Below are positions 36,571 to 44,683 of a DNA stretch of 64,000 bases, piece after piece (the stretch's first letter is position 1; each line of letters opens with the position of its first letter). A program made the translations under genes and the position numbers. The DNA comes from Phyllosticta citribraziliensis (lineage: Eukaryota), in contig NW_027117347.1 of assembly GCF_038025025.1 (NCBI RefSeq), positions 1,488,001 to 1,552,000 on the forward strand, given 5' to 3'. Below the pieces are notes generated by a model, which did no database searches, was not told the origin of the DNA, and saw nothing but the letters and a program-made list of their open reading frames with translations.

Positions 36571-39299
36571 GGCCTGGTGGTCCTCTCAACGGTACATACA
36601 CATACATACATACAGCGCGCGCAGGCAGGCGAGCCGAGCGGAGGGCGGAAGAGACGGCCGTCGAAGAAGAGCGGAGGACTGACTGGAGAAGCAAGAACGG
36701 AAAGCCAAACAAAGGCACGCTAGAAAATGGATGCCCTGTTCGACAGCGTCGGGTTGCACGAGGGTGAGATGACAAGCAGTCACGGTCGCGGTCACGCTCC
36801 TTCGCACTCTCCGCTGCCACCCATATGGAAGTACCCGCCCAATCACCAATCACCCGCACCGCCCATCCCTGCGACGGCCTGCAAGGACTGCACTCCCTGG
36901 AGCGACCGACTCTTCTGGCCGATAGCGGCGCCCGCCCTCTGATCTGCCCTCTGCCCTCTGCCCTCGACGTGGCCCACAATGATTGGAAGACTGCCATGGC
37001 TGAAAGATTAATCACCACACCCAGGCCAAGACGATGCCGCCACCGCTCCAGCAGCCCTGCCCTCGAGACAAACACCATGCCAAGCCCTTCCCGTGACGCT
37101 CCTCCCTTTCTCTTCGCAAGCGACTGACATTCTTCTGCCTCAGGTCTGCCTCTACTGTACCTCGCGCTCAACAAGACGGCGGCCAAGCTCTGCAACGTCC
37201 GTCCCATGGGGATCGTGCAGCCAAATCACACGCATATGCATGGCGGGTGTGTGCAGCCAAAACTTGGCCAATGGCCTCGCAGGCAACATGGCGGCTGCAG
37301 GAACCATGGCCTGGCCTTGGGGATCAGCAGTCGGACATGAGGAAAAGCCCCCAAAAAGGACCACTTGTCCATGTCTTACGCCTGGAACACCTCGTATTGT
37401 TGTGGGAGCCCGCAAGGGTTGTTGGGAGATTGTCGTCGTCAGTGCCATGGACATGAAAACATGGCTATTTCCGGCCGGTGGAGAGAGCCAGCCAGCCAGC
37501 CAGCCAGCCTGATGCCGCGGGACCGGCAACGCGGTTGCGAGATGCGCACGTACAAGGGGATGGGGGACCAAATCCAGCGCGGGGCCAGGCCACAGCACAG
37601 CATAGCAGCCAGGCCAGGGAAGAAGGGAGGCTGCTCGCATGGTTGGATGGACGTTGCAGCAGGTTCAACCCAAAGCCTCGGGGCCACCACTGCTCTCGCC
37701 GCGTGTGCAGAGCAGAGGAAAACAAAAAAGGGCCCCTCGTGGGTGCCCGTGGTGTAATCCTCGCATCAGTCTTCGCAGTGGTTTCTGTTGCGGTGAGGGC
37801 GGAGCGGACTCACAAACAGCGCGAAAAGGACCACGCGAAAGCGGTGCGACCAGGCCCTTGCATGGCGACGAAATCCGTTGGCCGTGGACTTGTTTTGTCG
37901 ACGCCACTTGCTGGCTGAGACGGTCTCGCTGGTACGACGGAGAAGCCTTGGAGCCATTACGTGCCGGCGTCATGTTGGTTCAAAAGACGGTCATGGGTGT
38001 CACTGCTGCCAGAGGGCCAAGTGTCGAGCGCCATTGGCGGGTGGCTGGCAAGCCACGCCGGCACCAATGGCTTGACGACCGGCAGCGGCGCTTACCATGT
38101 GAAGCTTTGGACGCTTGCATGGTTCGGGAAAGGCTCCAAGGAAAAAGGCAGATGAGGAGGCGGAGGAGGAGGAGGAGGAGGAGGACGGAGCGTTGGGAGC
38201 TGGAAAGGCATCGCATCGGCCGACGCATGGCATGGCATGGCATGGCATGGCATTGGAGCCATTTCAAGCCAGCGCCCGCGGAGCCGGGTCGACGGGCGGC
38301 GCAGCAATCGTGATCTGCTCTGCTGGTGTGGAGCGGTGGGCGGGAACGAACGAACGGTGAATGATGAGAGACGAGGGAGGCGGAGACCAGAGGCGAGCGG
38401 TGGCTTGGAGGATGGTGGGGGGGGGGGGGGGGGTCCCACCTTGTCGACAGCGCACACGACGCACACCGCAACTAGAGGGCCTATGAAATATGGCGGCAAA
38501 GTGCTACACAATCGATCCTCAGGCCATGGCAGTCGCACCCGTTGTCCTCGTCCACGTTGCACGGGCGGTCCAGTCAGCGCCATCCCCGTCGCCGCCGTTG
38601 CGTTGCGTCCGGACGTCGTTGACCTTTTGGTCTGGGCTGGACGAGTTGAAATTGTTGTGGACCGCTGGGACCGCTGGGCCCATTGCACATCACCCGTTGA
38701 GCCAGTGCGTTAGTCAGCGGCTGCGGCCGCACATCACACGTCCGTCTCCCGCCAGCTCTGACCACGAAACGGCCTGGCTTAGGGACAAGGAATTGAAGAG
38801 AGAGACTGATGCATTCAATCATTCTCTCGGCTATTGCCTACTACTACAGTCTATACAGTCTACAGCAGTGTCGTCTGTCGTCTGTCGTCCCCATGGCCCG
38901 CGGACCCTTGGCCACGCCTCACGCCTTGACCCTGGCGCTGCTGGCTGGATGGATGTACTCAGGTCGCTGTACCCTGGGGCCTGCCCCATGCCCCATGCCC
39001 ATGCCCATGTCCATGCCCATGGCCACCCACATGCACCCATGCAAATGCCTACCGACAGTGCCTCTCCCCGGGCGCCTTTTTAGATTGAGAAGAGCGTGCG
39101 GCGTGCGTGACATCTCCACCCTGTGCTCTCGATTCCAGTCGTGTCCTCGTTCTCCAGATTATTCCTGTCTCTGGTCGGCGTATCGCTGCTGCTCGACTAT
39201 ATGCAGCGCCCTTGCGAGTCCGCAGACGCACTCGCGCCGTCCCGCTCTTGCTCACGCAGCCCAGTTCATCTTGACGTCTGCTGAGTTATCTCTCGACAG

Positions 39300-41412
39300 C
39301 GTCCACCGCAGTCTCTCTTCAACTCGAACGTCGCACCGTGCGGCGTGTGCTTTTGGTCCACCTCTCGACTCCTCCATTCTCCCTCTCCCTCTTTCTCTGT
39401 CTCTCTCTCTCTCTCTCGCGCGCGCGCCCTCTCAGCCTCTCCAATCCTCGCCTGGCTCGCTGTCCGTCTGCCTGGCCGCCCGCCGCGCTGCCCGTGCACC
39501 ACCACCACCACCACCACCACCACTACACCCCCAGCTCCAGCAGCCGCCGTCGCCGCCGCCCGCCCGCTCCCCTCCCTCCCTCTCGCTCCGTCTCGTGTCC
39601 GTCCTTCGGCTAGCCTTGAAGGAACAACATCGCTCGTCCTCAAAACATCCTCCGACCTCCATCCCGAAGCTTCGCCTTGCCGTCTAGGCCTCTGTACGTT
39701 AAACCTCCCGCCTGTCGTTCCCGCGTTCTTTTTCGCTTCTTCCTTCCTCCTTCCCGCCCTCATTGCCCCACGACTTGGCTGCCCTCGCCAGCCCGCCATC
39801 GAAAAAAAAAAAAAAAAAGAAAAAACAAAAAAGAAAAAAACCCCCGGACTGCCCTGCCACCCCCCCGCCAGTGTCAAAAGCTGGTTCGCTCGCGCCAGCC
39901 AGCAGCGTTTGCGCTAGTTCTACTCTCGCATCAATCCCAACCTCCTCCGCCGCCGCCTTCTTCTAAACCTCCGCCCACCCTCCCCCACCGCTGCTCTTCT
40001 TCTTGTGCTGCACGCCCGTTGTTGCCCAAAAAACCTCGTCCAAGGCTCGAGGGTCCGTTGTCTTGCGCTCCCTGCCTTGCCTGCCTCTTTTGCTGACTAC
40101 TGGTCCGCGCTGCAGGTGTCATCGGCCAAAAGCGAGCAATCCTCCACCCAGATCCTGCACGGCCCATTAACGCAGACGACACGAGACGACTTAACGACCG
40201 GACACGATCTCCTAGACCGTCATCAGGCTCCGGCGCTCTAGTTCTTTCGTTGCTGCCCATCTTCACTTGAGTTACTATTACTTGTTGCGCTGCCCTCGAT
40301 CCACCTGCGCACCTACACAAACGCCTACGCCTCTCGACCACCACCACCACCACCACCATTAAGCACCGCTGTTTGCCGTTGCTACGATTACTGCTGCCGC
40401 CGCCGCTGCATGCCTTGAAACGACTCATTGAGCATTCTCTTTCACGACCGGCACGACTTCACGACGGCTTTCTGGCTTCAGCATTGCTAGCGTTCTTGTC
40501 GTCCTGAGCTGCATCAGCACCAGCAGCCTCTTGTCTGTCTGCGCAGCATTCCTCAACCCCGAATTCCTCGGTACGACATCGTGTCACGCAACTTGGTGCG
40601 ACTGCGGAACCAAATCTCAAAGTCGACTCACGAATCGACCCAACACAATCTGCTCAGGGACTGTCGTTTTTGCGCCGTCTCGCTACTCAGTCGAAGGTGA
40701 GTGCGCGCGTGCTAGCTGTTTGCCCCGCCACGTGCTGCGACACTGGTTTTTCCCATTCTCAATCTTTGCTGCATGTCTTTTTTTGCCCCATTGCACAGCT
40801 CGAGGCCCGAACGTTACGCTACTCGCTTATCACTGCTGCCAATTGCAACAACGTCCACCCCGCGGCGGCTACGTGCGCCCTGAGATCCTGCGCAAAGCCA
40901 CCTCCACCCGCCCCGTCCTGCGCGCGTTCCGCACCCCGCATAGAGACCTCGCTGACTCGCGCCTCTCCAGGCTTTGACCTTCTCGTACCGTTCTCGAGCA
41001 AAATCCCGACAATACCGAAAAGCTGGAGCTGCCATCGATTTCGCAGGTCCACTCCAGAGGCCCCGTCGACTCCTCGTGGTACAGCACCCAATTCCAGCCA
41101 CGACCCACTGTCTCGAGTGAGCGCCTTCCAGCTTTGCCTCAGATTCAGTCGGGTGCCAACACGTCGTCAAACTCTTCCTCGCCTCGGGGTGGATCCATTA
41201 GCTCTGCGTCTGCTCTCCACAGCAGCGCCAGCTCCCATACCTCTTATTCTTCGTCAATCAACGGCAGTCATTCGGGATTCAAGACGCCCTCTCCAGAGCA
41301 GACTCCGCAAACCCTCGGACGCGACCCCCATTCATTGAATGGGCACGCGCAAGAATCGCCCTACACTCACCATCATTCAGGCTACAGCTACGGAACTGAT
41401 ACCTACGGCAGC
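39300..41412 (+). promoter_or_regulatory. Long spliced 5' leader of stuA with two putative introns (39694-40115 and 40697-40970) and uORFs
   Basis: Donors GTACGT (39694) and GTGAGT (40697); GCTGAC branch sites followed by CAG acceptors (40115 and 40970). Pyrimidine-rich and nearly AUG-free. The transcription start is not determined. Confidence 0.6.
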
Positions 41413-43425
41413 ATGAACCAAATGCAATCCTATCCTGATGTGAACCAACAGCACATGTCGGCAACGCCCGCACACGCTACCTCGACCGGCCCACCGTCGA
41501 CAATGGGCTACACGTATGCCGCGCAACCTCCATACTTGCAGCCGGGACCGAGCACTTCGCTCGTTCAAGGTTCTTACTACCCCAGTTCCTACGGCAATGG
41601 ACTCCCGACGCCGTCGTCGAGTGCTATGAACAGCGCGCTTATTCCTGCCCCCCTTCCCTTGCCAGGTAAGCTTCACATCCAATCGAAATGCCAACTTGTA
41701 CTGACAGCAACCAGCAATGTCTTCTGGTGGACCTGGTGGTTCGGTCCCTGGATCCCAGGGCCACTCCGCTCCCTACACATTCGACACCACCGGCCAGATT
41801 GCTCCTCCAGGCATGAAACCGAGGGTCACAGCGACTTTGTGGGAAGATGAAGGCAGTCTTTGCTTTCAGGTGGAAGCCAGGGGCGTGTGTGTCGCTCGCC
41901 GGGAGGACGATCACTTCATCAACGGCACCAAGCTGCTGAATGTGGCTGGCATGACAAGAGGCCGACGTGATGGCATTCTCAAGAGCGAAAAGACTAGGCG
42001 CGTGGTCAAAATCGGACCCATGCATCTCAAGGGCGTGTGGTAAGTTGCACATGGAATCCAAGCATTCCCCTTCTAACGCGAAAAAGGATCCCTTACGAGC
42101 GCGCCCTGGACTTTGCGAACAAGGAAAAAATCACAGAATCGCTTTATCCTCTGTTTGTTCACGACATTGGTGCCTTGCTCTATCATCCCTCCAACGCGCG
42201 CAACCCTGGAGGCACAGTGGCAGCCGCCCTCGACCGTCGCCGTCCTGATAGCCAGCAACGCTACATTGGTGCCCCTGCCGGATCGCAACCACCATCATTA
42301 CATCACCACCACTCCCTCAGCAATCCTTCGATTGGAGCGCAGCTTCAACAGTCCCCCCACTCAATTGCTCCCCACCCTTCTGCTGGTCGCCCGGGGATGG
42401 ACAGGGCGCATACGTTTCCGACCCCTCCTACGAGTGCTTCGAGTCTCATAGGCATGGGTAGCTCGGGAAGCTCCTACGAGTGGGGCAGCAGCGGTGTTTC
42501 GAATATGCAGGGCAACCAGCCACTGTCGATTGACACGGGTCTAAGTAATGCGCGGTCCGTCCCGACTACACCTGCCACGACGCCCCCGGGAAACATGCCA
42601 AACATGTCACAATATCCAACATCGCAGGGCTACGACAGTGCTCGGCCCATGTACAGCGCGCCGCCCAACCAACCTGGCCAGTACGGTGCGCCGCAAAGTG
42701 TTCCCCGCTATGCGCAGCCCGTGCAGTCTGCACCTTACCCCAAGACTGAGATGGCGCCCTTTGGTAAAAGCGAAATGGCGCCTCCTGTAAGGGCTGGTGG
42801 CGACCCTGTCCAGCAAGCTGATGTGAAGCCGGTCGAGGGTCTATTGAACCAAGGAGAGCACGTCGGCCCGGTGGCTGGCGAAGAAGAGGCAGACCACGAA
42901 CATGACAACGAGTACACCCACACGAGCGGCCCGTACTCCAATCGCGGGGCCTATAGCTATGCCTCCTCCACTGGAGCGATGTCGGGCGAGCACGTATCCC
43001 CGAAGATGACTGGATCTCCTCGTCAGAACGGATCCGGACGAGCAACGCCTCGTAGTGCCCAAACCGGTTGGGCGCGTGGATATGGTCCACCCGGAACTTC
43101 TCAACTGCCATCCAGCAACCTTTTCAATGTCATGAGCGACACGCGCGGCAGCGCCAATGGAAACGCAGGTCCCGACGGATACCCGGCGCCCGCGCCTCTG
43201 CACTCGGGATATGCCAGCCAGTACAGTCCGGTCAACGGTTCCAAGAGAATTCGGGAATTGGATGACGACGAGACTGACTACGGCCGTCCGGCGAGTCGAG
43301 ACGCCAACGCCAACGACATCGATGGCCTGAAGCGCAGGAAGACCATTACCGAGAGCACCATGGGCGGTGCGGTCGGCGGTGACATCCAAAGAGCAAAGTC
43401 CACCATTGCTCAGCGCCGTCGGTAA
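41413..43425 (+). CDS. stuA: APSES developmental transcription factor StuA/Asm-1
   Basis: Exons 41413-41665, 41715-42039 and 42087-43425. APSES domain [59 protein letters not shown]...[32 protein letters not shown]-terminal LKRRKT. First in-frame ATG gives [11 protein letters not shown] possible non-AUG extension starts at 41023. Confidence 0.95.
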
Positions 43426-43899
43426 AAAGACTGTCACCACTTAATCTCTGTGCTGCATGACAGATTGCGTCTCTAGACCACATAGACGGCTTCCTGCGAT
43501 CTGGCGCACAATGGACCGACTAATTACGCGGATTCGAGCGGCCTCGGGAGTAAGGATTCGGAAAACGAGAGCTTTGCTGGATCTTTCGACGGCCATTGGG
43601 ATCTCTTTGGACATTTTCGGAACCACCTTTTGGGGCTTTGTGCAGGGCAACGAACGACCTTGCGGACTTGGCCAACATTCCTTCATTTTGAGAGTTTTTC
43701 CTTGTTTCCTTTATCAGTGAAAGGTTTTCTGGCATATGACGACATTGACGACTCTCATGCCGTTTTGTTTTCTCTTGTTTTCTCGAAAAACCAGCCTTCA
43801 TGAACCATGGCTGGAATATTCCGACGAGGGCGAAACTTTTCACGAATCCTGGTCCTGGCAGGGTGTAGAGAACCACCTTCGGGAGTTTTTGTACTTTTC

Positions 43900-44683
43900 A
43901 ACATATCCCCTACTACCACTACTACTACTACTACTACTATTTGGCATTGCGCAACGTTGTTCTCTCTCTCAAACGCCTCCGCGGAACAAAATGAAAAGCA
44001 TTCTGGCAATTTTCACAATACATTGGCAGCAGTGTGGGGCCTCCCTCCTTCTCTCTCTCTCTCTTTAGTACAATCCCCGCGGGCCAGCAGCAGCAAGCAG
44101 CACAAAGAAACCTAGCATCGGCTAATACTTGACAATTCAATCTTTTTTGGGTTTTTTCTCTACCTGCGTCATCGTCCCATTCACGCTTGGAGAGAAAAGG
44201 ACATGGATCGATCGCTTGCGGAAGGAAAAACGTTGCGTCCTGACAACAACAACAACCTAAGGTGTGCGCGACCGACCGGCCTCCTGCGTTCGTTTGTGAT
44301 GTCTGTTCCTTTTGCGGCCACATGCGCGCGAGCCGAGGGAGTCACCACCCACCACCGATTGGAAAGGAAGAAGAAGAGAAAAAAAAAAAAAAAAAGCGAA
44401 CGCGGTCTCATCCCCTCCTCTCCGTCCTTTGCTCCTGTTGACACAAGCCCATGGCAAGAGACGACTATACAAACAACGTCATCACCAAAGACTCAGCACG
44501 CGCAGCCCCAGCAACGAAAAAAAAAAAAAAAAGAAACACATCAACTACTACATACACGTGTTGAGAGGAAAGAAAAAAAAGAAAAAAAAAGACGTCTTCC
44601 CACGCGCAGTCGGGACCAACAACAACAAAAAAAAGGAGAGGTTCTTGTCGCGCGCCCGCGCGCACCGTTATACACACCTGGGA

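Follow-up and report, generated by a model that had tools for sequence, protein, structure and literature searches.

The window, by which we mean the whole 64,000-nucleotide stretch of Phyllosticta citribraziliensis DNA analysed here (contig NW_027117347.1), carries on its + strand, between about 39600 and 43800, the gene for the APSES transcription factor StuA. The translated exon at 41717-42037 matches the KilA-N/APSES family PF04383 with 26.9 bits, above the Pfam cut-off of 23.8, and full-length orthology connects the gene to named StuA or cell pattern formation-associated proteins of Phyllosticta, Aspergillus, and Curvularia. The closest named protein is the "apses transcription factor-like protein StuA" of Phyllosticta citricarpa (Dothideomycetes, Botryosphaeriales; P0002 in what follows), which itself matches PF04383 with 37.9 bits. 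The spliced gene translates into 638 residues from its first in-frame ATG at 41413 and into 768 residues if it is read from a CTG at 41023. The original prediction, made from the sequence of the window, proposed that this longer protein exists and that its 130 additional N-terminal residues are reached by initiation at the CUG. The features of the locus are as follows.

39617-39693, + strand: upstream 5' leader exon (a lower bound), with a GT..AG joint from 39693 to 40116 that skips 422 nucleotides in contigs of RNA runs X1 and X6; without ATG.
39870-40051, + strand: alternative leader exon that falls within the first leader intron and is joined to 40115/40116 (joint 40051 to 40115, skipping 63 nucleotides, in X1 and X7 contigs); without ATG.
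40116-40696, + strand: leader exon 2 (X1 contig 40116-40697, X6-8 contigs 40368-40694), with its sole ATG at 40410.
40410-40418, + strand: two-codon upstream open reading frame (uORF), M-P-stop, from a scan for ATGs.
40697-40970, + strand: GT..AG leader intron of 274 nucleotides, its joint present in one contig each of X1, X6, X7, and X8.
40975-40977, + strand: in-frame TGA in exon 3, 15 codons 5' of the CTG, closing the StuA frame to upstream (from the sequence and the RNA exon start at 40971).
41014-41026, + strand: putative initiation site, consisting of the context ACCGAAAAG, CTG (41023-41025), and G at +4, from 27 distinct sequences.
41023-41412, + strand: predicted N-terminal extension, 130 codons in the StuA frame without in-frame ATG, from the open frame, the ratio of nonsynonymous to synonymous substitution rates (dN/dS), and the differences by codon position.
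41023-41148, + strand: most conserved block of the extension (LELPSISQVHSRGPVDSSWYSTQFQPRPTVSSERLPALPQIQ), with L1, L3, P4, S5, I6, S7, V9, R12, D16, R27, L35, and P36 invariant in alignment A3.
41281-41295, + strand: K-T-P-S-P site in the second conserved patch, with P89 and P91 invariant in A3.
41339-41416, + strand: out-of-frame 25-codon uORF whose ATG has T at -3 and whose TGA overlaps ATG 41413 (ATGA).
41413-41415, + strand: first in-frame ATG, the conventional start of the 638-residue StuA (MNQMQSY...), with A at -3.
41413-41665, 41715-42039, and 42087-43425, + strand: StuA coding exons after the ATG (stop codon 43423-43425), with joints in all four RNA runs.
41666-41714 and 42040-42086, + strand: coding introns, with joints in all four RNA runs.

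The structure of the mRNA was read from the assembled contigs of four RNA runs belonging to two studies (X1, X6, X7, and X8), aligned to positions 38500-43800. X1 is identical to the window, and X6-X8 are RNA sequencing (RNA-seq) runs of the other study, from a relative that diverges from it by a few per cent. Five GT..AG joints are listed. They mark the two coding introns and two leader introns, one at 40697-40970 and the other at 39694-40115, the latter also having a short alternative form that begins at 40053. Single contigs of X6, X7, and X8 span 40368-40694, 40969-41661, 41711-42038, and 42086-43800 and so cross every junction from 40368 onwards. One X1 contig (40668-40998) retains the second leader intron at a depth of 138 compared with 14259 for the spliced form (about 1%), although contig depth is unusable as a measure of isoform abundance and was not taken as one. 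The exon that contains the CTG starts at 40971, and the TGA at 40975-40977 is therefore part of the mature mRNA, in which no in-frame AUG precedes 41413. The original prediction had placed the closing stop, the exon start, and the first AUG at exactly these positions, and the joint over 40697-40970 now bears out the exon start with RNA. It had also pointed to the CAG at 41046 as an acceptor through which an upstream AUG might reach the frame, but none of the five joints listed from the assembled contigs leads to 41046 or to any other position within 40971-41665, and no AUG-bearing exon is spliced into the extension region in the RNA contigs of the four runs.

The leader upstream of the conventional start is nearly free of AUGs. 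When it is reconstructed from 39617-39693, 40116-40696, and 40971-41412, its 1100 nucleotides contain only 2 ATGs, compared with 10.9 +/- 3.3 expected from 2000 shuffles, none of which (0/2000) had 2 or fewer. The 2 alternative leader exons suggest a second promoter, as in the stuA-alpha/stuA-beta arrangement of Aspergillus nidulans. Simple repeats occur around the gene: an A-rich run at 39800-39842, a (CCA)n tract in the leader exon at 40338-40360, and an (ACT)n tract in the 3' region at 43910-43940.

From 40978 to the end of its exon the StuA frame is open, and 145 codons pass without a stop before ATG 41413. An absence of stops over this length was seen in 1.3% of 5000 shuffles (mean 4.3 stops), and the open frame by itself, judged on the window alone, is only moderately unlikely. 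Twelve in-frame near-cognate codons lie between the stop and the ATG, and of these CTG 41023 alone combines A at -3 with G at +4 (gaaaagCTGg). Both this context and the peptide read from the CTG agree with what was originally described.

The CTG was also compared among relatives. Metagenome contigs were scanned with two peptide patterns taken from the conserved N-terminal motif (a 5-sequence alignment), which gave 44 loci, 43 of them covering the start. Removal of duplicates left 27 distinct sequences (26 metagenome loci and the window), falling into 17 groups at 80% nucleotide identity, and all but one of the 27 reach the conventional ATG. CTG occupies the aligned codon at 43/43 loci covering the start and in 27/27 distinct sequences. 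The codons of the next invariant leucine column are CTG in 11 sequences, CTC in 11, and CTA in 5 (n = 27), and two further invariant or near-invariant leucine columns use all six leucine codons. One of the search patterns spans T/N-E/A-K-L-E-L-P-S-I and thus covers the start residue, with codon choice left free. Five distinct loci (L008, L034, L037, L041, and L043) do not fit this pattern, and so only the downstream pattern can have found them, yet they too have CTG with A at -3 and G at +4.

At none of the 43 loci does an in-frame ATG occur between the nearest upstream in-frame stop and the CTG. The stop lies 6-92 codons away in 40 loci, and in the remaining 3 the edge of the locus is reached first; in L039 and L040 it is only 6 codons from the CTG. 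Three loci (L041-L043) each hold a frame of 770-776 codons that runs from the CTG without a break, and for that reason look like spliced transcripts, and 2 of these (L042 and L043) contain an upstream in-frame stop with no ATG before the CTG.

Conservation around the codon extends on both sides but takes different forms. Among the 27 sequences, A is found at -9 in 27, C at -8 in 24, C at -7 in 27, G at -6 in 27, and A at -5 in 20; positions -4, -3, and -2 are A in 27 each, and -1 is G in 20 and A in 7. Downstream, +4 is G in 27, +5 is A in 27, and +6 is G in 26. The segment from -9 to -1 (ACCGAAAAG) is kept at all three codon positions and conservation is gone beyond -12, while 3' of the CTG the profile becomes three-periodic. 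A near-cognate codon conserved at the border of the coding region had been put forward as a sign of such a start, and here the codon is CTG in 27/27 with invariant A at -3 and G at +4.

A small hairpin can be drawn by eye at about -35 to -21 before the CTG (e.g., GGTC-AYTCAA-GRCC) in L003, L004, L007, L008, L010, L012, L020, L022, L028, L032, and L034, and its stems covary across loci (GCGCC..GGCGC, GGAC..GTCC, GTCCTC..GAGGAC). It was rejected as a candidate element: its folding energies are ordinary (z -1.7 to +1.4), and neither the window nor the Aspergillus/Penicillium-like loci show it.

The sequence that follows the CTG has the signature of a coding region. In each of the 26 sequences extending as far as the ATG, the frame is open for 111-139 codons, and since the extensions differ in length, every insertion or deletion (indel) must be a multiple of three. 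Upstream, from -120 to -10 (111 nucleotides), frame-breaking indels (1, 2, 4... bases) occur in 9 of 12 assessable pairs. Over the extension, dN/dS by the Nei-Gojobori method is 0.24 at the median, 0.30 on average, and 0.71 at most, taken over the 61 of 351 pairs with 0.05<dS<1.5, and close pairs give 0.13-0.20. Differences at codon positions 1, 2, and 3 number 133, 104, and 411 in 14 close pairs, which places 63% (411/648) at third positions. The RNA contigs of the X6-8 relative repeat this pattern at short range: 8 of the 10 differences from the window listed within 41023-41412 are synonymous and at third positions, compared with 10 of 13 synonymous after the ATG, the table behind these counts covering 23 of that contig piece's 25 differences. 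As judged from these comparisons, the extension is under purifying selection in the StuA frame, beginning at the CTG. The orthologous segment, which had been expected to be open with dN/dS below 1 if the prediction was sound, is open and in frame at every locus that covers it.

Conservation within the extension is concentrated in a 42-residue N-terminal block, an S-rich patch (SSSPRGGS), and K-T-P-S-P, the last of which could, as inference only, be a proline-directed phosphorylation site. A profile search of 1.84 billion representatives returned 49 proteins, 2 of which carry a 45-residue version of the block (ELPSIS-VH-R-PVD-WY...LP-L) inside otherwise unrelated open reading frames (ORFs). In P0146, which ends in a GATA zinc finger (PF00320), residues 179-222 hold the block, and in P0151, a 584-residue ORF present on 15 contigs, it occupies residues 340-391. 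The presence of the block within 2 other ORFs argues that it functions as protein, and it may be a portable motif common to transcription factors. The extension is probably a partner-docking or phospho-regulated region.

Database proteins give a view of how widely the extension is distributed and of how it has been annotated. The translated first exon, used as a query, matched 25 longer proteins, and a profile of the extension found 143 matches, 120 of which were listed. Among the matches listed are Dothideomycetes (Phyllosticta, Aplosporella, Pyrenophora, Venturia, Curvularia, Plenodomus, Didymella, and others), Eurotiomycetes (many Aspergillus and Penicillium, Paracoccidioides, and one Onygenales species), and Lecanoromycetes (Squamulea, Variospora, and Caloplaca), along with Sarcosagium, assigned no further than leotiomyceta. 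Named Sordariomycetes and Leotiomycetes (asm-1 type) are absent from the matches listed, which is weak evidence of absence since AUG-started models escape a search of this kind. The statement in the original prediction that ELPSISQVH-RGP and LPAL motifs precede the annotated start in other Pezizomycotina is borne out for Dothideomycetes, Eurotiomycetes, and Lecanoromycetes, a narrower range than Pezizomycotina as a whole.

The motif is present in 122 of 128 database proteins examined, and the residue aligned with the CTG is leucine in 119 of these 122. A Venturia model has methionine at this residue and starts there, and the named Aspergillus models carry the motif as TEK-LELPSISQVHTRGPVD. Although 103 of the 122 motif-bearing models begin with M (19 do not), the parts that precede the shared (T/N)-x-K-L-E are unrelated between genera, and several models are labelled "partial". 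These unrelated and partial N-termini look like the product of gene predictors hunting for an absent AUG. P0002 is a close example. It is 97% identical to the 130 residues of the window extension, but its first ~50 residues come from a frame about 1.3 kb 5' of the CTG (ORF 38797-39687) that is joined to ...NPDNTEKLE. The RNA contigs contain no junction that links the frame of this ORF to the CTG exon, and the N-terminus of P0002 is for this reason probably a prediction artefact. Part of exon 1 is missing from the P0002 model as well, which reads GYT-NSLVQ at that place.

Conservation extends to the conventional start as well. The methionine of M-N-(Q/H) is kept 111-139 codons 3' of the CTG in 26/26 sequences that reach the ATG and is the first in-frame ATG in 24 of them, L041 and L043 having an earlier ATG 8 codons upstream. 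Between the CTG and the first in-frame ATG, 11 out-of-frame ATGs are observed compared with about 50 expected from shuffles of codon order, a depletion of about 4.5-fold, and 16 of the 27 sequences have none. This depletion, together with the A at -3 of the AUG, favours 2 isoforms produced by leaky scanning. That long and short StuA are both made is accordingly the favoured reading of these sequences, at a lower degree of certainty than the long form itself. The out-of-frame ATG at 41339 in the window is matched by one at an identical offset in L001 and L002 and by one at a corresponding offset in L003-L005, and this weak start may reduce production of the short form in the window and the sequences closest to it.

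Taken as a mechanism, these observations would fit an mRNA with a leader of at least about 700 nucleotides, almost free of AUGs, along which scanning 43S complexes would reach CUG 41023 in its conserved, near-optimal context (ACCGAAAAG-CUG-G). A fraction would start there with Met-tRNAi and produce the 768-residue StuA, whose first 130 residues would be disordered and would contain (M)ELPSISQVH-RGPVD-WY...ERLPAL, followed by the S-rich patch and KTPSP. Ribosomes that pass the CUG would start at AUG 41413 and make the conventional 638-residue protein, with a few diverted by the out-of-frame AUG 41339. We put the probability that a CUG-initiated long StuA is made at about 0.85. Very probably, then, this fungus and its relatives in three classes, Aspergillus among them, share a conserved front end of StuA, 130 residues long in the window, that is started at a CUG. 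The prediction of a long isoform by near-cognate initiation gains its support from the invariant CTG, the dN/dS of 0.24, and the RNA contigs. Four things are direct observations: how the mRNA is built, that its frame is closed upstream, that the extension is under selection of the coding type, and that the CUG and its context do not vary. A coding signature that switches on at one invariant CUG, with the frame closed just upstream, makes initiation at the CUG the simplest reading.

Several points weigh against this reading. The start of ribosomes at the CUG itself is inferred from the points just named. The search patterns came from the motif itself and bias the loci towards conserved copies, and kinship among the sequences means that 27/27 does not amount to 27 independent events. 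Assembled contigs drop rare variants, and a minor AUG-bearing splice form could escape notice. No conserved RNA structure was found 3' of the CUG (RNAalifold on 21 sequences: -3.6 kcal/mol, 6 pairs, 0 compensatory changes). No Pfam family matches the extension, and AlphaFold2 run with a 14-sequence alignment gives it a predicted local distance difference test score (pLDDT) of 52 without secondary structure; the extension, including the 41023-41148 block, is predicted to be disordered.

The most direct competing explanation is that the extension is translated from an ordinary AUG in an upstream exon spliced in frame to an acceptor within 40978-41022. Many database models propose such an exon, P0002 with its far-upstream frame being one, and 103 of the 122 models with the motif begin with M. 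AG dinucleotides are available at 40996-97 and 41021-22, and a rare splice form could have been missed by the contigs. Yet 0 of the 5 listed joints end in this interval, the dominant contigs of all four runs hold the TGA, and the N-termini proposed by the models do not resemble one another from genus to genus. In 7 of 27 sequences, A at -1 leaves no AG directly before the CTG, and the purine-rich stretch from -9 to -1 is unlike a fungal 3' splice site. The transcript-like L042 and L043, with their upstream in-frame stop and no ATG, and the stop 6 codons off in L039 and L040 speak against it as well, and we regard an upstream AUG as very improbable. Still less credible is an untranslated leader conserved as an RNA or DNA regulatory element, with the open frame as a by-product. 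The leader of stuA is long and, as Wu and Miller reportedly found in 1997, controls translation. That of the Candida albicans homologue EFG1 likewise is long and controls translation (PMC6034079). An open frame with a P of ~0.013 in the window alone would also leave room for such an element. What decides against it is the evidence from relatives, in which the frame stays open over 111-139 codons in 26/26 sequences despite their different lengths, with all indels in multiples of three, and differences fall mostly at third positions with a dN/dS of 0.24. RNAalifold gives no consensus structure, and the 45-residue motif recurs inside 2 other ORFs, one with a GATA zinc finger.

A third possibility accepts the CUG but not the pair of isoforms, making the CUG form the only or main product and AUG 41413 an internal methionine. 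The optimal and invariant context of the CUG is consistent with this, as is the out-of-frame AUG 41339 that intervenes in the window and its closest relatives, and the extension is conserved like the start of the AUG protein (synonymous differences 8/10 before the ATG and 10/13 after). However, near-cognate codons are as a rule much weaker starts than AUG. The roughly 4.5-fold depletion of out-of-frame AUGs, with none in 16/27 sequences, is what scanning through to the AUG would be expected to leave behind, and the AUG has A at -3 and a conserved M-N-(Q/H) methionine. We consider a CUG-only StuA unlikely, if a good deal easier to entertain than the two explanations that dispense with the CUG.

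The proposed production of long and short StuA from CUG and AUG has a counterpart in c-Myc, where an upstream CUG and a downstream AUG on one mRNA yield 2 isoforms that differ at the N-terminus (Hann et al. 1994, as cited in PMC6034079). The likeness lies in the CUG/AUG isoform pair of a transcription factor; c-Myc is an animal gene with a short extension of unrelated sequence. For stuA itself, Wu and Miller reportedly found in 1997 that a micro-ORF in the stuA-alpha leader governs translation in A. nidulans and that the gene has two promoters. They are said to have regarded the product of both mRNAs as a single 622-residue StuA begun at an AUG, with no extended protein described. The window locus resembles A. 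nidulans stuA in its long leader, its 2 alternative leader exons, and its very short uORFs, and 2 transcription start sites are given for stuA in PMC3563288. EFG1 of C. albicans shares the long leader, which at ~1.1 kb promotes translation, but its authors excluded an extended Efg1, all upstream frames ending in the leader (PMC6034079). No yeast protein with the extension motif is among the matches of the exon search, the extension profile, or the search of 1.84 billion representatives.

The nearest precedent in filamentous fungi is CPC1 (cpc-1), which in Pezizomycotina has a near-cognate N-terminal extension with a dN/dS of 0.285, and for which initiation has been demonstrated in vitro, with support in vivo (Ivanov et al. 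2017, PMC5487733). Both genes encode a fungal transcription factor behind a long leader, and both have an in-frame extension under purifying selection (0.285 vs 0.24 for StuA) with conserved near-cognate codons that have A at -3 and G at +4 (PMC5487733). Automated annotations of cpc-1 at times include the extension and leave its start unresolved, much as those of stuA do (PMC5487733). There are also differences: CPC1 has several candidate codons (CUG, AUU, and ACG) whereas StuA has one invariant CUG, and the CPC1 extension overlaps and bypasses an inhibitory uORF whereas the StuA frame is closed shortly upstream, with no long uORF to bypass (PMC5487733). CPC1 is moreover a bZIP protein and StuA an APSES protein, and the StuA case is known here from sequence and RNA contigs. 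A CUG start has also been proposed for the bZIP factor IDI-4 of Podospora anserina and is kept in a relative (cited in PMC5487733). IDI-4 is thus another filamentous-ascomycete transcription factor with such a proposal, although in its case the CUG would be the sole start (PMC5487733), whereas a shorter AUG form of StuA is likely also made. A search of open-access papers and bioRxiv, with subscription journals and supplements outside its scope, found no report of an extended StuA. Conserved non-AUG extensions are already known in fungi from cpc-1, and the StuA case appears to be newly described.

A bolder proposal goes well beyond the existence of the long form. The CUG form might be the ancestral and functionally dominant StuA of Dothideomycetes, Eurotiomycetes, and Lecanoromycetes, and the CUG:AUG ratio a developmental translational switch, set by start-codon stringency and the choice of leader, that is the real basis of stuA translational control, with the 45-residue motif as a portable docking module. 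We offer this only tentatively, and on balance we doubt it.

Work on StuA as a model regulator of fungal development goes back to the early 1990s, and the factor is linked to virulence in many pathogens of plants and humans. Should its true N-terminus lie 110-139 residues 5' of the accepted AUG, constructs begun at the AUG, whether for complementation, over-expression, N-terminal tagging, or recombinant protein, would have lacked a conserved region of the protein. Deletions of the "leader" would likewise have removed coding sequence, and the published translational effects of the leader would need to be read again. A CUG start would explain why stuA models are inconsistent or "partial" across hundreds of genomes and would provide a simple rule for correcting them. 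Among the transcription factors of filamentous fungi, StuA would join cpc-1 as a second well-supported example of a near-cognate start that is old and conserved, and its single invariant CUG may offer an unusually clean system for the study of start-codon stringency.

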